Both the position numbers and the translations under genes were made by a program. The notes beneath the pieces are model-generated. The model had not been told where the DNA came from. It searched no databases and saw only the letters and a list, made by a program, of their open reading frames with translations. Shown here piece after piece: positions 3,191 through 45,080 of a stretch of 45,080 nucleotides of DNA (its first letter is position 1; the number at the start of each line of letters is the position of its first letter). The stretch spans positions 1-45,080 of the forward strand of contig DASRGZ010000184.1 of the NCBI GenBank assembly GCA_035650735.1, written 5' to 3'. This DNA comes from Chthonomonadaceae bacterium. GTDB taxonomy: Bacteria > Armatimonadota > Chthonomonadetes > Chthonomonadales > Chthonomonadaceae.

Positions 3191-3299
3191 CGGGCGGCTG
3201 AAGCCGCAGCAACAAAAGCACTAAACCCGCCTGCGCGGGTTCGGGTTTAGTCGGCGTAGGCCGACTTTGTGCCTTGGTTGCAGCGAATTTATTCGCCCG
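3191..3299. repeat. REP-like palindromic doublet (family B)
   Basis: Imperfect long IR CGGGCG...CGCCCG enclosing hairpins AACCCGCCTGCGCGGGTT, AGTCGGCGTAGGCCGACT and GCGAATTTATTCGC. Its right half recurs at 12083-12133. Confidence 0.8.
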
Positions 3300-4425
3300 C
3301 TATCGAAACGCCATAGAGGGAAGCCGCGTTCTCATAGAGCATTTGCCGGGCGGCGCGCTCCGCCTGTTTTGCCTCCAGCCAGCCGTCTGCCTGGAGCGTT
3401 CGGAGGGCGCTCTCCAGACTCTGGCGTATGTAGAGACTGCCCAGATAGAACAGCTCGGGAAAGCTGAAGGCATCGGTCGCCAGCATCACTTTGGAGGTGG
3501 GTGCCAACTCCAGAGCAGCGCGAAGGGCTGGCGTCCCGCCATGGGCGGTAAACGGAATCGTCAGCGAGAGGTCTACAAAAACGTTGCTATACAGGGAGGC
3601 CAGGTAGCCGGCCTCGCGGCAATACGGATAGGTATGCAGCAGGACAAAGGAGGCCCCGCGCAGCGCCTCCTCTTGCAGCAGAGGCCGCAAATGGAGCGGG
3701 TTCGCCAGGCGTAGGTCTAGGTCGTCGTCGCCGAAACCGGTGTGAAACTGCACCGGCAGCTCCTGCGCTGCCGCCACCTCCAGGCCGATGCGCCCCAGAT
3801 ACTCCAGCAGCGTCCTGTCGGTCAGCCGCACGCGGCCCTCCTGCCGCGCCCTAGCCCGGAGCGCAGGATAGGCGTCTGCCGCCTCGGCGCGGGAACGGGG
3901 CAGGAACGGCAAGCCGCCGCGATAGGCCGCGATGCTTTTGAAGGCGACGATACCGCGCGCGCGGGCGTCGGCCAAGCGCGCGCGGTATGCCTCCTCCAAC
4001 TCAGTAAAGCTGTTGGTCTCCACAAGGAGCTGCTCGATGAGGGTTTCCAGCCGCAAGACCTCGTAGAGGGCGCAGGGCAGAAACGCACGCTGCTCCTCCA
4101 GCGTGTAGTTCTCTGCTTCCCGCAGGCCGGTGTCTACCAGCATCGCCGCGATATGGGCCGCCGCGATCAGTTGGCGCGCATATGGTTCCGGCGGCAGGCT
4201 CCGACGCGCTGCCAGCACGCCGGCTTCGGTCGGCTCACAGCCCAGCAGCGCCGCCAGATCGGCCAGTCCGCGGGCGTAGAAGAGATGGAAAGGGATATGC
4301 GCCGCCATCGCCGGGTCGGCGCTTTCGCTGAAGTGGCGCCGGAAGGCCGTCTCGTCCAGCGCCGCCAGCGGGCGCCTCAGGGCATGGCAGTGATGATCTA
4401 GCAACGGAATGGCCGCGAGATCCAT
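3289..4425 (-). CDS. Amidohydrolase family protein (FluG/NodGS N-terminal-like)
   Basis: Motifs LDHHCH, FKSIAAYRGGL, PVQFHTGFGD, VLLHTYPY and ATDA. Confidence 0.9.
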   Translation of the reverse strand: MDLAAIPLLDHHCHALRRPLAALDETAFRRHFSESADPAMAAHIPFHLFYARGLADLAALLGCEPTEAGVLAARRSLPPEPYARQLIAAAHIAAMLVDTGLREAENYTLEEQRAFLPCALYEVLRLETLIEQLLVETNSFTELEEAYRARLADARARGIVAFKSIAAYRGGLPFLPRSRAEAADAYPALRARARQEGRVRLTDRTLLEYLGRIGLEVAAAQELPVQFHTGFGDDDLDLRLANPLHLRPLLQEEALRGASFVLLHTYPYCREAGYLASLYSNVFVDLSLTIPFTAHGGTPALRAALELAPTSKVMLATDAFSFPELFYLGSLYIRQSLESALRTLQADGWLEAKQAERAARQMLYENAASLYGVSIAGE

Positions 4426-12033: not shown

Positions 12034-12035
12034 GG

Positions 12036-12133
12036 CCCTCACCCCCCACCCCTCTCCTACGCTGCGGGGGAGGGGAGCAAAGAGTCGGCGAACGCCGACT
12101 GGGTGCCTTTGTTGCCGCGAATTCATTCGCCCG
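12036..12133. repeat. Composite repeat: CCCTCACCCC hairpin (family C) plus family B half-element
   Basis: CCCTCACCCCCCACCCCTCTCC...GGGGGAGGGG at 12036-12077, then AGTCGGCGAACGCCGACT...GCGAATTCATTCGCCCG at 12083-12133. Confidence 0.8.
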
Positions 12134-12493: not shown

Positions 12494-12540
12494 CGCCGGG
12501 GCCTTTATTAGCCCGGTTCTAGCCGAGAGAGGAACCAGCC

Positions 12541-14190
12541 ATGGCATCCAACGAGCTTGCGGCGTCGCCTCCCATCGCCGAGGAAACGCCGACCATCACC
12601 GCCGAGATAGAGGAGATGGAAGATCGGCTCGGGCCGCTCCTGGAGCGCCCCGAAGAGCCGTGCGCCTTTGTCATCTTCGGGGCCAGCGGCGATCTAACCG
12701 GGCGCAAGCTGATTCCGGCGCTTTATAACCTCTTCTGCCAGGAGCTGCTGCCGCGCGGCTTCGCCGTGATCGGCTACGCGCTCACGCCGATGGAGGACGC
12801 CAGTTTCCGCCAGCAGATGCGCCAGAAGGTCAAGGATTCGCCGGAGGTGTTGGCCTTCCGCCCGAAGCTCTGGGACGAGTTTGCCCCGGCCCTGCACTAC
12901 CTCGTCGGCGACTTTGAAAACCCAACGGGCTACCAGCAGCTGGCCGAACGGCTGCGCGAGATGGACGCGCAATACGGCTGTGGCGGAAATCGCGTTTTCT
13001 ATCTGGCGACCGCCCCCACTTTCTTCGCCCCCATCGTCGCCAACCTGGCAAAACACGGCCTCATCAACCGCAACAGCAGCGGCGAAGGCTGGGCGCGCCT
13101 CGTCGTCGAGAAGCCCTTCGGGCGTGACCTGGCAAGCGCGCAGGAGCTCAACAAGGCGCTCCGCAGTGTCGTCGAGGAGGATCAGATCTATCGGATAGAT
13201 CACTATCTGGGCAAGGAGACGGTCCAGAACATCCTCGCTTTCCGCTTTGCCAACTCCATCATCGAGCCTATCTGGAACCGCCAGTATATTGATCATGTGC
13301 AGATCACGGCGGCGGAGACGCTGGGCGTGGAGCATCGGGGCAAGTATTACGAGGAGGCGGGCGCTCTGCGGGACATGTTCCAGAACCATCTCTTTCAGCT
13401 TCTGGCCCTGGTGGCGATGGAGCCGCCGGTGCGCCACTACGGGCAATCGGTGCGCGACCGCAAGGCCGACGTGCTGCGCGCCGTGGTGCCCCTCAACCCG
13501 GAGAATCTGGCGGAATCGGCGGTGCGGGGCCAGTACGGGCCGGGGAAGATAGACGGCGTGCCGGTGCCCGGCTATCGGCAGGAGCCGGACGTCGCCCCCG
13601 ACTCCGCCACGGAGACCTACGCCGCGCTCAAGCTAACGCTGGATAACTGGCGTTGGGCGGGCGTGCCGTTCTATCTGCGCTCCGGCAAGCGCCTGCCTCG
13701 AAAGCTGACCATGATCGCCATTCAGTTCAAGCGCGTGCCCCATCTGTTCTTCCGGCGAACGTCGCAGGACCAGATCGAGCCGAACACGCTGCTGATCCGC
13801 ATCCAGCCGGACGAGGGCATCGCGCTCAAGCTTGGAGCGAAGGCCCCCGGATCGCGCATGGTCATCCGCCAGATGCAGATGAACTTCTCCTACGGCGCGG
13901 CCTTCGGGGAGTTTCCGGCCACCGCCTATGAGACGTTGCTGCTCGACGCGATGCTGGGCGACCCGACCCTGTTTAACCGCAGCGATGCGGTCGCGCTCTC
14001 CTGGGACATTCTGAGGCCGGTGCTGGAGACCTGGCAGGCCACGCGCGCCTTCGTCTCTTTTCCCAACTACGCGGCGGGAACCTGGGGACCGGCTGCCGCC
14101 GACGCGCTGCTGGCCCGCGATGGGCGCGCCTGGCAAAACGCGACGACGCTGCCCCTGTTCACGCCGACCGCAGCGGAGCGGAAAAGCTAG
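12541..14190 (+). CDS. zwf: Glucose-6-phosphate 1-dehydrogenase
   Basis: Motifs [28 protein letters not shown] and [13 protein letters not shown]. Confidence 0.97.
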
Positions 14191-14193
14191 AAA

Positions 14194-14417
14194 TAAACCA
14201 CCCGCTCCGCTAGAGACACAGAGACACGGAGAAAAACCAAAAACTAATTCAGACAGGATGAACGGGATGAACTGGATTTCAACAACCTAGACAAACTCTG
14301 TTTCTCCGTCTTTGCGCAATCCTGTAAATCCTGTTCATCCTGTCTAAAAATCTGGTCTTTCTCTCTGTTTTTGTTGTTCCTCTGTGTCTCTGTGCCTCTA
14401 GCGGAGCGGGTGGTTTA
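14194..14417. repeat. Nested inverted-repeat (MITE-like) element (family D)
   Basis: Outer IR TAAACCACCCGCTCCGCTAGAGACACAGAGACAC / GTGTCTCTGTGCCTCTAGCGGAGCGGGTGGTTTA. Inner IR AGACAGGATGAAC... / ...GTTCATCCTGTCT at 14251-14345. Confidence 0.85.
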
Positions 14418-14441
14418 ATTTGTATTGGGCGGAGGAGAACG

Positions 14442-20673: not shown

Positions 20674-22170
20674 GTGGGCACGGAAAAGTTCATCCTGGCG
20701 CTGGATCAGGGCACGACAAGCTCGCGGGCGATACTGTTTGACGCGGCGGGACGGGTGCGCGGCGTCGAGCAGCAGGAGTTCCCGCAGATCTACCCGCAGC
20801 CCGCCTGGGTCGAGCACAACCCGGAAGACATCTGGAACAGCCAGCTTGCGGTTGCGGCCCGGCTGCTGCAATCTCAAAATGTATCCGCCAGCGACATCGC
20901 TGCCATCGGCCTGACCAACCAGCGTGAGACAACCCTCCTCTGGGAGCGGGCCACCGGTCGGCCCGTCGCCAACGCCATCGTCTGGCAGGATCGGCGCACG
21001 GCCCCGCTCTGTGACGAACTTCGCGCTGCCGGCCACGCGCCCCTGTTTCAATCCCGCACCGGCCTGACGCTCGATCCCTATTTCTCCGGCACGAAAGTGC
21101 GCTGGCTGCTGGATAGCGTGCCCGGCCTGCGTGAGCGGGCGCAGCGCGGCGAGATCGCCTTCGGAACGGTGGATTCCTTCCTGCTCTCGCGGCTCTCCGG
21201 CGGCAAGATCCACGCTACCGATGTCTCCAATGCCTCCCGCACCTTGCTCTACAATATCGTTACCGGCGACTGGGACGACGAAATCCTGGCCCTGCTGGAT
21301 ATTCCCCGCGCTCTCCTGCCGGAAGTGAAGCCGAGCAGCGCCCTCTACGGCGAAACCGTTCCTTCGTTGCTGGGCGCGCCCGTCCCACTGGCGGGCGTGG
21401 CGGGCGATCAGCAGGCGGCGACCTTCGGGCAGGCGTGCCTTCAGCCGGGCATGGTCAAGAATACCTATGGCACCGGCTCCTTCCTGCTAATGAACACCGG
21501 CCAGACGCCCCACTTCTCCGACAACGGCCTCCTCACAACCATTGCCTGGCAGATCGGCGACAAGATCACCTACGCGCTGGAGGGCAGCGTCTTCATCACG
21601 GGCGCGGCGGTGCAGTGGCTCCGCGACGAATTACAAATCATCCGTACCGCCGCCGAGATCGAGCCTTTGGCGGCCTCCGTGCCGGATAGCGGCGGCGTCT
21701 ACTTCGTTCCGGCATTCGTCGGGCTGGGCGCGCCCTACTGGGACGCCTACGCGCGGGGCACTATCGTCGGGCTGACGCGCGGCGCCGGGCGGGCGCACAT
21801 CGCCCGGGCCACCCTGGAGGCTGTCTGCTACCAGACGCGCGACGTGCTGGAAGCCATGCGCGCCGACAGCGGCCTGGAGATCGCAGAGCTGCGTGTGGAC
21901 GGCGGCATGACGGTCAACAACTTGCTTCTTCAGATGCAGGCCGACCTTCTGGGCGTTGCCGTCGTCCGGCCCGCCGTCACGGAGACGACGGCCCTGGGCG
22001 CGGCCTACCTGGCAGGATTGGCCGTCGGCTACTGGCGCGACACCTCGGAGATCGCCGCCAACTGGGCCATAGGCTCGACGTTCCACCCGCAGATCGGCGC
22101 CGAGGAGCGGGCCGCGCACGTGCAGGGCTGGCAGCGGGCCGTCGAACGCGCCCGCGCCTGGGCGGCATAA
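20674..22170 (+). CDS. glpK: Glycerol kinase
   Basis: Motifs [36 protein letters not shown] and KNTYGTG. Confidence 0.98.
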
Positions 22171-22175
22171 GATTC

Positions 22176-22348
22176 CAACAGGATGAACAGGATTTAGCAG
22201 GATTAAACAGGATTTCTTAAAACCAACCCAACCGAATACCTATGCCTCTGGACTTCAAGCTGATTGGAAGGCTTTTGTCTCTCTAGCCCTAATCCTGTAA
22301 ATCCTGAGTAATCCTGTTCATCCTGTTGAGATTTTTTAGCGGGTGGTT
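22176..22348. repeat. Family D element (ACAGGAT / ATCCTGT inverted arrays)
   Basis: Four CAGGAT units at 9-10 nt spacing facing four ATCCTG units (22176-22328), followed by AGCGGGTGGTT, the same end as the 14194-14417 element. Confidence 0.85.
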
Positions 22349-27640: not shown

Positions 27641-27684
27641 CTTCCCCCTCCCCTGTTCTTGGGGAGAGGTTGGGGGTGGGGGCC
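27641..27684. repeat. Family C hairpin, reverse orientation
   Basis: CCCCCTCCCC-TGTTCTT-GGGGAGAGGTTGGGGGTGGGG. Confidence 0.7.
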
Positions 27685-27727
27685 TGTTTTCGTGGTAGCG
27701 CATATAGAATTGCGGTAGCCGTTGGCT

Positions 27728-28953: not shown

Positions 28954-28965
28954 GGCGTAAAATAG

Positions 28966-29105
28966 ACCTCACCCCCGGCCCTGCTTCCGGCAGGCTAAAC
29001 CCTGCCGCTGTAGGGCCTGCGGCCCGCTGCCCACCTACGTGGGCAGGAAAACAGAGAAGCCGGGTCACTCCCTTCCCTTTTAGGGAAGGGGGCCGGCGGG
29101 TTAGG
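28966..29105. repeat. Full-length ~140-bp family C element
   Basis: Terminal IR ACCTCACCCCCGGCCC / GGGCCGGCGGGTTAGG. Internal hairpins GGCAGGCTAAACCCTGCC and CCCTTCCC-TTTTA-GGGAAGGG. Confidence 0.85.
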
Positions 29106-29119
29106 CTAGAGTCCGCGCT

Positions 29120-29857
29120 TCAAGCGGCGGATAGCCGGTGCTCGCAGAGGCGCGGCAGGTCTGCGCGCGCGGCGTTGCCCGACAGGAGAATATCCAGGCT
29201 ATCGTCGCCACAGTTCAAGAGCAGGTCAAAGACGCTCAGGTGCGAGCAGAATTCGCCCCAGAGCTGCGGGTAGGTAGGATGGCGGTAGTCCTGGAAATAA
29301 ACGGCGATGCCCGCGCGATGGAAGCTCGCCACGTCGGCATAGTCCCTACCGAGCGCACCGAAAATATAGGTGTCTGCTCCCAGCTTTCGGCACATATCCA
29401 GCACCAGGTCAGATTTCTGGCCCTCCAGGTCGATCTCGCGTCCCAGGATCAGGCGCGGACGCAGGCCCAGCGCCTCCAGCAGATAGCGGAACATGGCCTC
29501 GTTGAGGGCATTGAGATGCGTCCACTCCCGGCTGTAGAGGTCGTGGAGGAAGGGCGCATAGCGGCTCCAGTAGCGCGCCTTGCCGTAGCTCAGCTCAAAC
29601 GACCGCCAGTGTTTGTGCCGCCAGTCTTCCTGGTTATTGATCTCCACCTCGGTCAACCGCTGGTCGAAGCGCCTGCTGGTGCGCACCGGCACGGTCAGCC
29701 AGGCCGGGCCGTTGGCGGTCTTAATCTTGTTGCGGTTGTTCCAGTCCTTTTTCAGGTACTGGACGGTGTCCAGGTAGACGAAGGCATCCGCCAGGGCGAT
29801 CTTGTGGAACAGGCCCAGCCAGGGCAGATAGACGGGCTGATGGGCAGTTAGGATCAT
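29120..29857 (-). CDS. WbqC family protein
   Basis: Motifs HQPVYLPWLG, NRNKIK, WLTVP, YPQ and LSVFDLL. Confidence 0.93.
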   Translation of the reverse strand: MILTAHQPVYLPWLGLFHKIALADAFVYLDTVQYLKKDWNNRNKIKTANGPAWLTVPVRTSRRFDQRLTEVEINNQEDWRHKHWRSFELSYGKARYWSRYAPFLHDLYSREWTHLNALNEAMFRYLLEALGLRPRLILGREIDLEGQKSDLVLDMCRKLGADTYIFGALGRDYADVASFHRAGIAVYFQDYRHPTYPQLWGEFCSHLSVFDLLLNCGDDSLDILLSGNAARADLPRLCEHRLSAA

Positions 29858-31197
29858 GGCAGTCGCTCCAGGGCGCGGGCAATATGCTCCACCTCGTCGT
29901 CGGTAAGGCCGGGGTAGAGGGGCAGGGAGACGGCCTGCGCGGCCAGCCGCTCCGCGTTGGGGAAATCCGCCGGATTGAGGTGGAGATAGCCCTCACCCCC
30001 GGCCCCGTGTGCAGGGTGTAGGGGATAGGGGGTAGGGGGTAGGGTCGCCCCCACCCCTTCCCCTCCCCCAATTGTAGGGGAGGGGAGAGCAGAATCCGGG
30101 TCACCCCCTTCCCTCTCAGGGAAGGGGGCCGGGGGGTTAGGTAGTACAGGAGGGCTGTGACGCAGATAGCGGTGCAGCAACTCGTAGGTGGCGATGGGCC
30201 GGATGGCGCGGATGCCCTCTGCGGCAAAATAGTCCAGCGGCCAGTCAGCGCTTCCCTTCTCGGCGGAGTTCTCCACCTCCGGCACAAGGACAAACCGATA
30301 GTAAACCGGTTGGGCGTCGGCGCGGGCCTCCTGCGCGCGCCAGCCAGAGGGCAGGGCGCAGCGATAGCGGGCGGCGATGGCGGCGCGGCGTGCCAGTCGT
30401 TCCGGCAGGCGGGCTAACTGGCTCCTGCCGAGCGCCGCCTGGAAGTCGGTCATCTGGTAGTTGTAGCGGACGCGGTAGGTGGGGCGGCAATCGAAGTCGC
30501 GCAGATCGCGCACCGTCTCCATGAGAGTGCGCGGCCCGACGACCATACCACCCTGTCCGGTGGTCATCAGCTTGGTGGCATAGAAGGAAAAGATGGCGAT
30601 GTCGCCCAGCGTGCCGGCTTTGCGCCCCGCCACAGCCGCCCCGATGGCCTGCGCGCAGTCCTCGACGACGGGCACGCCCAGCGCCCGCAGCGCGCCGATG
30701 TCGGCGGGAAAGCCATACGTATGCGGCGCGATGATCGCCTTCGTGCGCGCGGTCAGCAGGGCGTGGACGTGGGCCGGATCCAGATTAAAATCGTTTGGCG
30801 ACACGTCGGCCAGAACCGGCGCTGCGCCCGCGTGGCAGACCGCATTCAGCACCGCCGAGCAGACATAGGTGGGCAGGATAACCGCATCCTCCGGCCCGAC
30901 TCCGAGCGCCAGCAGCGCCAGATGTAGCGCCGTCGTGCCGCTGGAGACCGCGACCGCGTCGCCCTCCAGGCCCAGGAAGGCGCAGACCTCCTCTTCGAAG
31001 GCGCGCGTCTGGGGACCCTGCGCGATCCAGCCGGAGGCCAGCGTCCCACTGACGGCGGCGATATCGGCGTCCGTGATCAGCGGGCGGTTATGCGGTATCA
31101 GGGGGCGTGCCCCGGCGGTTAGCGTCTCCGTCTTCATTTCGGCTTCATTGCGCGCAGCGTCCGTTCGTAGGAGCGGGCGTGTTTCGGCGGTTAGCAT
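29854..31197 (-). CDS. DegT/DnrJ/EryC1/StrS sugar aminotransferase carrying a 60-aa repeat-derived insertion
   Basis: Motifs SSGTTALHLAL, EDCAQ, FSFYATK (PLP lysine) and SLPLYP. Alternative start at 31137. Confidence 0.92.
   Translation of the reverse strand: MLTAETRPLLRTDAARNEAEMKTETLTAGARPLIPHNRPLITDADIAAVSGTLASGWIAQGPQTRAFEEEVCAFLGLEGDAVAVSSGTTALHLALLALGVGPEDAVILPTYVCSAVLNAVCHAGAAPVLADVSPNDFNLDPAHVHALLTARTKAIIAPHTYGFPADIGALRALGVPVVEDCAQAIGAAVAGRKAGTLGDIAIFSFYATKLMTTGQGGMVVGPRTLMETVRDLRDFDCRPTYRVRYNYQMTDFQAALGRSQLARLPERLARRAAIAARYRCALPSGWRAQEARADAQPVYYRFVLVPEVENSAEKGSADWPLDYFAAEGIRAIRPIATYELLHRYLRHSPPVLPNPPAPFPEREGGDPDSALPSPTIGGGEGVGATLPPTPYPLHPAHGAGGEGYLHLNPADFPNAERLAAQAVSLPLYPGLTDDEVEHIARALERLP
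29991..30170. mobile_element. 180-bp family C palindromic insertion, in frame within the DegT gene
   Basis: AGATAGC occurs at 29984-29990 and 30164-30170, exactly 180 bp apart. IR CCTCACCCCCGGCCCC / GGGGCCGGGGGGTTAGG is shared with 28966-29105. Confidence 0.85.
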
Positions 31198-31904
31198 CGG
31201 GCGAGAACCAGATCGTACATATACCAGGACTGCCAGATATGGGGGTCCATCGTACGGATTTCGGCTGCCATGCCGGCCCGACCGGCCAGGTCGGCCATCT
31301 CCTCCGGGGCCAGCCAGAGCAGGCGTTCGTTGCGGGCGCGCAGCAGCGCCTTCTGTTCTGGCGTGCGATCCAGCCTGGCGATACCCGATAGGTAGTCCGC
31401 TTTGTGCTGGATATCGGGATTGCCCGCCACCAGCGCCCTGCCGCCGGGAGCCAGCACGCGCGCCACCTCCCGGAGCGCCGTCTGTACCTGCTCTCTATCC
31501 GGAAGGTACTGAAGAACGCTCCAGCAGAGAACCCTGTCGAAGGTTCCCTCCGGGAAAGGCAGGGCCAGCACGTTGGCCTGCCGTACCTCCACATGGGGAA
31601 ACTTGAGGAGATGGCGGGCTGCATTCTTCACCTGGCCCTGCGCGTAGTCCACGCCCACGGCGTAGCGTACCCAGGGCGCGAGCATCTGCAGGACGTGGCC
31701 GCTGCCGCAGCCGATGTCCAGGAGAGAGCTCTCGCCGGAGAACTCCAGCTTGGCGCAGATGTCGGCCAGAAGGTAGAAGAACTCGGCGGCGCTGGCGCTG
31801 CTGCGGCCATTCGCTTTTGCCGGATGTTCCGCCTGCGCCGTCTCCTCCCAGAACCGCAGCCAGTAATCGTCTCTCTCGGCCTTATTCATCAAAAGCGTGC
31901 ACAT
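31191..31904 (-). CDS. Class I SAM-dependent methyltransferase
   Basis: Motifs LLDIGCGSG, GVD, LPFPEGTFDRV and RVLAPGG; RBS AGAGGAG. Confidence 0.9.
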   Translation of the reverse strand: MCTLLMNKAERDDYWLRFWEETAQAEHPAKANGRSSASAAEFFYLLADICAKLEFSGESSLLDIGCGSGHVLQMLAPWVRYAVGVDYAQGQVKNAARHLLKFPHVEVRQANVLALPFPEGTFDRVLCWSVLQYLPDREQVQTALREVARVLAPGGRALVAGNPDIQHKADYLSGIARLDRTPEQKALLRARNERLLWLAPEEMADLAGRAGMAAEIRTMDPHIWQSWYMYDLVLARC

Positions 31905-34011: not shown

Positions 34012-34038
34012 GTAAGCTGCTCCTCTGACTTAAAAATA

Positions 34039-34083
34039 GCCCTCACCCCCTCCCCTTCTCCCACACTGCGGAAGAGGGGAGGC
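34039..34083. repeat. Family C hairpin
   Basis: GCCCTCACCCCCTCCCCTTCTCCCAC...GAAGAGGGGAGG, similar to 12036-12077. Confidence 0.75.
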
Positions 34084-36094: not shown

Positions 36095-36343
36095 TGCCTG
36101 CACAGGCATCGCAAGGCGGAGGGCTGTCGCAAGGCAGAGGGCTGTCGCAAGGTGTGTCGCAAGGCGGAGCCGGAGGCCGTAACTCCGGCGACCCTAGCAG
36201 TGGGCCGAACCATTGCAGGCCCGACCCTGGCAGTCCGTTGAGCGGCGTCCCTTGCAGTCAGCAGGCCTGGCTAGGCGGAGGCGCGAGCGAGTGCAGCGCC
36301 GACCCTTGCAGCGCCCCACAGCGGCAGGGTTTAGCCTGCCGCA
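36093..36343. repeat. Mosaic array (family E: 4x TCGCAAGG, 4x G(A/T)CCCT(A/G/T)GCAG) embedded in a family C core
   Basis: Motifs counted directly. Flanks CTGCCTGC.CAGGCA and CCCACAGCGGCAGGGTTTAGCCTGCC match 42338-42400 and 28985-29046. Confidence 0.85.
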
Positions 36344-39358: not shown

Positions 39359-39371
39359 CTCCTCTCGACGA

Positions 39372-39572
39372 CGGAATAAATTCCTTCGCAGGGTAGCGTT
39401 CCGCCTAGTGTCCGCCTACGCGGACACCAAAGAGCCTATTGAAAGGTGGTGTCCGCAAGGGTGCCGCTAGACGGAGCGCCCAACCATGGCAGGCGCGACC
39501 CTTGCAGTCCGTTGTAGGCCCGACCCTGGCAGTCACTGAGCCGTAGGCTACAGAGTGAGGGAATTTATTCCC
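39372..39572. repeat. Family B-like element enclosing family E motifs
   Basis: Bounded by GGAATAAATTCC / GGAATTTATTCC. Contains hairpin GTGTCCGCCTACGCGGACAC and GACCCTTGCAGTCCGTTGTAGGCCCGACCCTGGCAGTC. Confidence 0.8.
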
Positions 39573-39641
39573 TTGTGACGGAGGGCCATTTCGGGGTGGG
39601 CAGCCAGAAGGTTACACGCACTTTCTCAGCAGGAGTCTAAA

Positions 39642-42273: not shown

Positions 42274-42337
42274 GCCTGCGCTCAGAGCCATCGCGTCGCT
42301 TTCCCCTCTCGGAAAACGGCCCACTCGCTCCGGGGCC

Positions 42338-42400
42338 TCTGCCTGCGTAGGCAGGCAGCGGGCCGTAGGCCCCACAGCGGCAGGTTTAGCCTGCCAGGAA
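42338..42400. repeat. 'Empty' family C core
   Basis: TCTGCCTGCGTAGGCAGGCAGCGGGCCGTAGGCCCCACAGCGGCAGGTTTAGCCTGCC is close to the reverse complement of 28985-29046. Confidence 0.8.
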
Positions 42401-44830: not shown

Positions 44831-45080
44831 ACCTAACCCCCCTTCCCTACGAGGGAAGGGGGTGACCCGGCTTCTGCGCTCCCTGTCTCTGCCCGCGTAG
44901 GTGTCGCAAGGCGGAGGGCTGTGGCAAAGCGGAGGCAGGGGCCGTAACCCTGCCGACCCTGGCAGTCCGTTGCAGGCCCGACCCTGGCAGTCAGCGGGCC
45001 TGGCTAGGCGGAGATCGCCAGGCAGAGCCGCGAACCGTTGAGCGGCGTCCCTGGCAGTCGAGCGAGCGCAGCGCCGCCCC
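44831..45080. repeat. Family C element end followed by a family E mosaic array (continues past the window end)
   Basis: ACCTAACCCCCCTTCCC..GGGAAGGGGGTGACCCGGCTTCT matches the reverse complement of 29055-29105 and 30089-30141, followed by TCGCAAGG and GACCCTGGCAGTC modules as at 36107-36313. Confidence 0.85.

Follow-up and report, generated by a model that had tools for sequence, protein, structure and literature searches.

A palindromic repeat of apparent BoxC/TM type carried in frame by a sugar aminotransferase gene of a Chthonomonadaceae bacterium

A sugar aminotransferase gene of a Chthonomonadaceae genome carries a 180-bp insert, and this insert is probably a non-coding, modular hairpin repeat of BoxC/TM type that landed in the gene and is tolerated there. 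The gene lies in the stretch of 45,080 nucleotides that was analysed as a whole (hereafter the window).

Insertion site and host enzyme

The gene, its downstream neighbour and the borders of the insertion have the following positions in the window:

29854..31197, minus strand: DegT/DnrJ/EryC1/StrS sugar aminotransferase gene with the insert, 447 aa, or 427 aa from the ATG at 31137
29120..29857, minus strand: wbqC-like gene, whose ATG overlaps the aminotransferase stop (ATGA)
29984..30163, no strand assigned: 180-bp insertion, alternatively placed at 29991-30170 because the direct repeat allows its edges a shift of 7 bp; on the minus strand it reads as 60 residues rich in Pro and Gly, which the model shows as disordered
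29984..29990, plus strand: direct repeat AGATAGC, left copy
30164..30170, plus strand: direct repeat AGATAGC, right copy

The initial annotation had reported AGATAGC twice at a spacing of exactly 180 bp, and the copies were indeed found at 29984 and 30164, in a repeat that cannot be extended in either direction. The frame at 29854-31197 on the minus strand passes through the 180 bp without a stop (447 aa), in agreement with the reported translation of the insert as a Pro/Gly-rich peptide of 60 residues, and since the ATG of the wbqC-like gene overlaps the aminotransferase stop, this frame reaches its natural coupled stop. Deletion of the 180 bp gave a sequence equal to that of the homologue P0004 at the insert site (ELLHRYLHLDPAGFPEAE), so that excision does restore a normal DegT C-terminus as had been claimed, and the single clean 60-column gap expected from DegT orthologues was found in an alignment with 29 non-self database homologues and the protein of one relative (n = 30). 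The insert folded better than its shuffles (z = −4.4 as DNA and −4.6 as RNA; 0 of 200 shuffles equally good). No empty allele of the gene was found among 54 metagenome loci or the best 120 database proteins (118 of them non-self, 343–382 aa), and the closest homologues are 55% identical, so the edges and the age of the insertion can only be inferred. A further insertion of about six residues relative to the homologues lies at 30270-30310 (the VPEVENSAEKGS region) and is not repeat-derived according to the k-mer census.

Regarding the direct repeat, flanking direct repeats of length 7 or more were observed in 6 of 144 elements (4%) compared to about 4% in shuffled pairings, and this lack of enrichment rules out AGATAGC as a target-site duplication of the whole family. 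Because direct repeats are not enriched and ATAGC is the most frequent 5-mer preceding the left arm of the family (36 of 477), AGATAGC may reflect microhomology between the target and the element end. It would then be the footprint of a single event, left by such microhomology or by a staggered cut; in either case it still defines the exact borders of the insertion event in the aminotransferase gene.

It is most improbable that an assembler spliced the repeat into the gene. Short-read contigs do break within the hairpins, and one database record holds the aminotransferase as two pieces of 362 and 66 aa (P0123/P0122) split within the insert; we read that record as an assembly gap, since its break coincides with a short-read contig break (30114). 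Contigs from four runs were aligned to the region, and those of X3 and X5, which belong to a separate study, join gene and insert sequence at both edges with zero differing letters (29067-30017/30018 and 30114-31300 for X3; 30114-30278 in place of 30114-31300 for X5), the right junction being bridged with 50 insert-specific bases and the left with only 27–28. No contig of the four runs spans the full insert and none shows a joint that skips the 180 bp, although contigs drop rare variants, and the joined empty form is absent from the contigs of the separate study. Furthermore, an artefact is not expected to preserve the frame in 25 genes. The suspicion of an artefact in the reads thus found no support, as independent contigs agree at both edges.

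The host protein belongs to Pfam PF01041 (E = 2.4e-84, 284 bits against a cut-off of 19.8). Its PLP lysine motif FYATK and its C-terminal SLPLYP are both intact, and the PLP lysine as well as S404, P406 and P409, located beyond the insert, are invariant in all 119 aligned sequences, the aminotransferase included. In an AlphaFold model based on 119 sequences, the mean pLDDT was 87.8 and 332 of 427 residues reached 90 or more, while only residues 332–382, belonging to the insert, were below 50 and lacked secondary structure. The top Foldseek match of the model was GDP-perosamine synthase 3bn1 (E = 9.7e-37, TM 0.88 on the target), and this match, PF01041 and the invariant Lys together place the protein among DegT aminotransferases of fold type I. 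It shares fold and catalytic residues with 3bn1 and ArnB, whereas the disordered insert of 60 residues in the small C-terminal domain is extra to DegT aminotransferases. The initial annotation had proposed checking whether the insert is a surface loop; in the model it is disordered and placed in a coil of the small domain with the remainder of the enzyme intact, but we infer rather than observe that this loop is exposed to solvent and that the enzyme is active. The 60 residues are most likely a harmless floppy loop.

Alternatively, this could be a young pseudogene, in frame by luck, with a disabled or destabilised enzyme whose loss is harmless through paralogues or loss of the glycan. The insertion site comes a few residues after the region of the C-terminal P-x-H/Y motif, close to the substrate cleft, some modules of the insert are 100% identical to other copies, by which the event may be recent, and there is no orthologue close enough for a selection test. 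Because the genome has many DegT paralogues, the need for the insert-bearing copy and its activity are not established, and a recent, mildly harmful insertion would look alike. We nevertheless judge a pseudogene unlikely, as all invariant columns are kept, the fold outside the insert is confident, the stop still overlaps the start of the next gene, and equal or longer inserts occur in the single-copy genes ligA, murD and priA. The gene belongs to a cluster for sugar modification that also contains neuB-like, methyltransferase, wbqC, acetyltransferase, TylF and cytidylyltransferase genes.

Modules, genomic distribution and class of the repeat

The insert is pieced together from modules that recur tens to hundreds of times across the genome, and it matches 377 distinct loci on 147 of 224 contigs, contrary to the lack of genome-wide repeat homology that would have spoken against the initial reading. 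Module copies were counted by genome search with reversed-sequence controls, which gave 0–2 matches. The modules of the insert and the related copies in the window are as follows:

29988..30008, plus strand: left arm, the reverse complement of a G-rich tail (TM_ECO type-B-like motif), pairing with the right arm
30014..30045, plus strand: 7-bp G-rich short tandem module, 55 copies (control 0)
30046..30090, plus strand: middle C-run/G-run hairpin with arm, a variant module with 2 close copies
30088..30104, plus strand: conserved linker, 67 copies (control 0)
30105..30141, plus strand: BoxC/PIT/TM-type motif, 74 copies (control 0)
30142..30163, plus strand: 22-bp tail unique to the insert copy
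28960..29105, plus strand: intergenic family member with the same left arm and right hairpin and a different middle module
44832..44883, minus strand: intergenic right hairpin module, continuous with modules from a different repeat family
27644..27685, minus strand: further intergenic hairpin module of the family
34033..34081, plus strand: further intergenic arm-plus-hairpin module of the family
12035..12077, plus strand: further intergenic arm-plus-hairpin module of the family

The left arm has 141 genome copies at up to 3 mismatches (reversed control 2). The motif at 30105..30141 is composed of a pyrimidine 9-mer, a loop, the complementary purine 9-mer, a second loop and a third G-rich tract ending in GGTTAGG, and GAGGGCT in the tail (30150-30156) is able to pair with AGCCCTC (29988-29994), closing an outer stem. 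The intergenic copies had been described as having the same terminal inverted repeats and hairpins as the insert, which is only partly correct. With the copy at 28960-29105 the insert has two parts in common, the left arm (20 nt, 95%) and, beyond a different middle, the right hairpin module (51 nt, 90%); with that at 44838-44883 it has only the right hairpin in common, inverted (46 nt, 91%). Modules are shared, not the whole element.

In a k-mer census of the genome, 1,944 repeat clusters were detected (219 kb, 3.4% of the DNA), among which 699 (115 kb) contain motifs of the insert family; these are modular and range in length from <30 to >600 bp. Against gene calls obtained with our own hexamer model (5,099 genes, 79% coding), 553 of the 699 clusters are intergenic, 64 lie over a 3′ end, 6 over a 5′ end, 44 at contig ends and 32 inside genes. 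Leaving out 4 internal clusters without downstream coding signal, 28 clusters in 25 genes, each flanked by coding signal on its two sides, are in frame, the aminotransferase gene included, and these 28 stand beside the 553 intergenic ones in the count that the initial annotation had called for. Of the 655 clusters away from contig ends, 28 or about 4% are thus intragenic, even though coding sequence makes up 79% of the genome.

Other modular palindromic families also crowd the genome (in the window at 36107-36343, 39368-39576, 42336-42384 and 3200-3300), with modules nested inside the insert family. The segment 19061-19170 holds an element of uniform 110-bp length that is bordered by terminal inverted repeats; it has 72 near-full genome copies and resembles a recent classical MITE. 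A/T-richer elements with inverted arms of 54 and 36 nt and short tandem units of AATCCTG type are located at 14191-14420 and 22169-22335, the former having 28 near-full genome copies. At G000:C193:32048-32156, a gene that resembles one for a Uma2-type endonuclease is apparently broken by a repeat from a different family.

By sequence, the insert repeat belongs with the BoxC/PIT/TM_ECO-type repeats. The TM_ECO consensus, defined by Holder et al. 2015 (PMC4666352), matched the genome 5 times exactly and 166 times in relaxed form (reversed controls 0 and 2), and the insert has one relaxed match (30105-30141), where the three-tract architecture of pyrimidine stem, purine stem and third G-rich tract is present, but no exact match, by which it departs from the class. 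Its left arm corresponds to a type-B-like tail in reverse complement, and its right end is of TTA type; the left motif lacks a hairpin of its own. As described in PMC4666352, BoxC/TM_ECO repeats have the same order of pyrimidine 9-mer, loop, purine 9-mer, loop and G-rich tract, are likewise spread over phyla and have no transposase alongside; their inverted pairs of motifs with TTA- and CCG-type tails may have a counterpart in the two ends of the insert. On the other hand, E. coli K-12 has 23 copies in that account, always intergenic, whereas the present genome has about 700 clusters in long mosaics, 28 of them in frame.

The parallel with Rickettsia palindromic elements (RPE) drawn in the initial annotation is a fair analogy as regards in-frame insertion of a genome-wide palindromic repeat in many genes. 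RPEs (Ogata et al. 2000, 2002), in the summaries given by PMC10969869 and PMC3733652, measure about 150 bp, encode a conserved peptide and lie in ORFs in nearly half of the cases, and in both systems a palindromic repeat of 100–200 bp is found in frame in unrelated housekeeping genes as well as in intergenic positions, with the host fold predicted to be kept. The insert family differs from that description in being G/C-rich, modular, variable in length (<30 to >600 bp), read in every frame and intragenic in only about 4% of copies. While in-frame and intergenic placement is shared, neither a fixed unit of about 150 bp nor a conserved peptide was found, and no NCBIfam model matches the inserted peptide at E 1e-8, nor does any Pfam family. 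Judged by length, frame use, peptide and intragenic share, the family functions like RPE but is not RPE, and the NCBIfam result gives no hint of kinship.

Repeats of the GTAG and CGTC REP type also form intragenic, in-frame clusters, adding up to 43–82 aa (Di Nocera et al. 2013, PMC3733652), and occur in similar hosts (ligase, UvrD/REP helicase and pseudouridine synthase genes); the arms of the present family, however, show no visible GTAG or CGTC tag, and different repeats accompany the RAYT-like genes of the genome. A RAYT gene between copies of the insert family, as in REP/REPIN, was not seen in this genome, the Y1 genes being flanked by other repeat families. Concerning MITEs, for which in-frame fusions are another known case (PMC3184786), terminal inverted repeats are present, their imperfect arms pairing in the fold, but a constant target-site duplication is not, at the above 6 of 144 elements, and the short genes listed out of 46 with flanking repeats on each side included no cognate DDE transposase. 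A single weak Rfam match, to sX13 (27 bits against a gathering cut-off of 50), was taken as a chance C/G-run match.

In-frame copies in other genes and genomes

Hosts of the in-frame clusters include ligA, purL, priA, prmC, murD, glnE, NFACT, waaA, hpnI and a PcrA/UvrD helicase gene, among others. NCBIfam cut-offs were passed by ligA, purL, priA, prmC, murD, glnE and hpnI, and at E 1e-15 eight of nine tested hosts are single-copy (ligA, purL, priA, prmC, murD, glnE, waaA and NFACT), the helicase host having two distant paralogues in the genome. The insert in ligA, of about 108 residues, lies in a loop that is variable anyway, and it is absent in all 19 of the 20 searched relatives whose match spans the site, the remaining one matching the C-terminal part only. 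In a genome of the same genus (G001), family hairpins of different make-up are in frame at the same murD loop and also lie at the same prmC site, where its contig ends; its ligA has no family insert.

The element is not shaped to code, since family clusters of 120–250 bp have 1.58 open frames out of six compared to 1.55 in shuffles (256 clusters), and family arms inside genes are read in all three frames and both orientations (13/5/3 and 12/7/2); the inserted residues comprise 18% Gly and 17% Pro. Under random insertion about ten broken genes are expected per open one (1/3 × 1.58/6). Of two coding-signal screens for disrupted genes, one returned 7 candidates and the other 20, and on inspection no candidate was clearly broken by the insert family; the screens used our own hexamer model rather than homology and so miss decayed pseudogenes. 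The pattern fits purging of gene-breaking insertions and survival of chance in-frame ones: copies would land widely and those that break genes would be removed by selection, the survivors being those whose length happened to be a multiple of three, whose frame happened to be open and which had landed in a loop. Such survivors would be translated as disordered Pro/Gly-rich loops without effect of their own, and modules would be gained and lost in place after landing.

We regard it as very unlikely that selection favours an RPE-like family for supplying a functional peptide, which would amount to adaptive protein innovation. Such selection could account for inserts that persist in essential genes and for the same loops being occupied in the sister species G001, but there is no fixed frame or peptide, which largely refutes it. 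In addition, open frames are no commoner than in shuffles, just 28 of the 655 clusters away from contig ends are inside genes, shared sites differ in module content from one species to the other, and the inserted peptide has no Pfam or NCBIfam family. The statement of the initial annotation that the family creates new protein sequence holds only in the sense of tolerated Pro/Gly loops, which are a minor fate of copies in a genome that is mostly coding.

The strict motif was found in 2 of 31 related genomes (that of the window and G001). It also occurred in at least 127 loci in records labelled Chloroflexota, Planctomycetota, Desulfonema, Nostoc/Anabaena, Poribacteria, Latescibacteria and Armatimonadota, with no neighbour gene shared across these loci. 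Among the loci listed, 14 ORF matches span the motif, and 9 of 10 such proteins that were scanned have Pfam families, such as a Nostoc pseudouridine synthase, a UvrD helicase and an N-acyltransferase; three are glycosyltransferase-41 fragments with inserts at one site in opposite reading orientations. An element specific to one lineage, as initially implied, is thus not what we see, the motif and in-frame copies being present in several phyla. Glycosyltransferase-41 paralogues of two genomes (L131, L146 and L159-L161) have an in-frame repeat at the same loop in opposite orientations.

DUF559 genes and their possible part in the spread of the repeats

The association with DUF559 emerged from a direct search for this family. 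In five repeat-carrying genomes of several phyla, which were chosen for carrying the repeat, 12 DUF559 matches corresponded to 11 genes, and 11 of 11 had Y/R hairpins within 300 bp on both sides. Beside the DUF559 genes there were 34 hairpins in 6.5 kb, and at greater distance 1 in 20.3 kb. Among relatives selected without regard to the repeat, 22 DUF559 genes were retrieved from 30 strong matches, and 9 of 22 were bracketed on both sides and 16 of 22 on at least one (3 and 7, respectively, in a stricter test of the same 22 genes). As controls, 0 of 5 weak or helicase-fused DUF559-like domains and 3 of 539 random genes of the window's genome were bracketed. Complete hairpin-DUF559-hairpin cassettes were found in frame in folC of G001 (L192, G001:C569) and in tilS of a planctomycete record (L187). 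The DUF559 gene ycjD of E. coli K-12 is followed, 167 bp beyond its 3′ end, by an exact TM_ECO, and a degenerate hairpin overlaps this 3′ end, with none evident on the 5′ side. The bracketing of DUF559 genes differs from the description of TM_ECO in PMC4666352, according to which there are no mobility genes nearby. A literature search joining DUF559 or ycjD to BoxC/triplex repeats found nothing, its coverage being partial; the supplement of PMC4666352 (flanking-gene table) may list ycjD.

Within the PD-(D/E)XK superfamily, DUF559 has been placed together with Vsr and a homing endonuclease of a group I intron (PMC3424549). The arrangement resembles REPtrons and TIRtrons in that one small nuclease gene is enclosed by inverted copies of a repeat which also occurs dispersed by itself (PMC3733652), with the difference that the enclosed gene is DUF559 and not a Y1/HUH transposase (RAYT or TIRYT). 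We tentatively propose, as a reading that is quite possible though short of probable, that BoxC/TM repeats form the termini of a selfish element of a so far unrecognised class, which depends for its spread on a Vsr-like nuclease, DUF559 (YcjD), and not on a transposase. The full cassette could then sit in frame in essential genes (folC, tilS) as a passenger domain with no need of an intein, and loss of the nuclease, or movement of hairpins in trans, would leave Pro/Gly loops that later grow and shrink by exchange of modules at the same permissive loops across species and phyla. The scattered repeats would be non-autonomous ends of the cassette, and the candidate nuclease might nick DNA so that repair copies the hairpins to new sites.

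A Y1/HUH transposase of RAYT/TIRYT type may instead move the repeats, or they may arise without a dedicated enzyme through replication slippage and repair at triplex-forming DNA, with DUF559 as a passenger or preferred neighbour; we consider this possible though short of probable. Y1 transposase genes are present in the genome, a stand-alone DUF559 gene is absent from this assembly, and family modules nest with other repeat families. Holder et al. also link TM motifs to local instability without a mobility gene (PMC4666352). On the other hand, the two RAYT-like genes are flanked by other families, and the 11 of 11 bracketed DUF559 genes of repeat-rich genomes are set against the few bracketed random genes and the unbracketed weak or helicase-fused domains.

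Each of these RAYT/TIRYT-like Y1 transposase genes (L014 and L015; G000:C166:80026-80454 and about 12520-12950) lies inside its own repeat family, and that of L015 appears frameshifted. Since they are flanked by other repeats, RAYT/TIRYT was rejected as the mobiliser of the insert family in this genome. The sole DUF559 match of the assembly was rejected as well, being a domain of a large helicase-like protein without hairpins. DUF559 in phages was limited to 3 weak records. At L207 (G004:C1:18290-21610), a DNA methyltransferase gene contains a segment that is presumably an intein and has a DUF559 domain inside it; Pro/Gly sequence of hairpin origin and a change of frame are found upstream. In the fabI-ycjD-sapF locus of E. 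coli K-12 (L223), ycjD adjoins the TM_ECO motif; ycjD there occupies the place of the eefRABCD operon of other phylogroups (PMC12817139).

A single in-frame insert would be unsurprising, because in-frame palindromes are already known. What is new here is that a variant of BoxC/TM type is amplified, mosaic and presumably translated; BoxC/TM repeats, always intergenic in E. coli and with no known way of spreading, are here read in frame in essential genes. The inserts map permissive loops in 25 enzymes and account for Pro/Gly-rich 'extra domains' that confuse annotation. Spread driven by DUF559 is the testable part of the case: because the hairpins bracket DUF559 genes across phyla and adjoin ycjD of E. 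coli K-12, the spread of BoxC/TM repeats can be tested in a laboratory strain.
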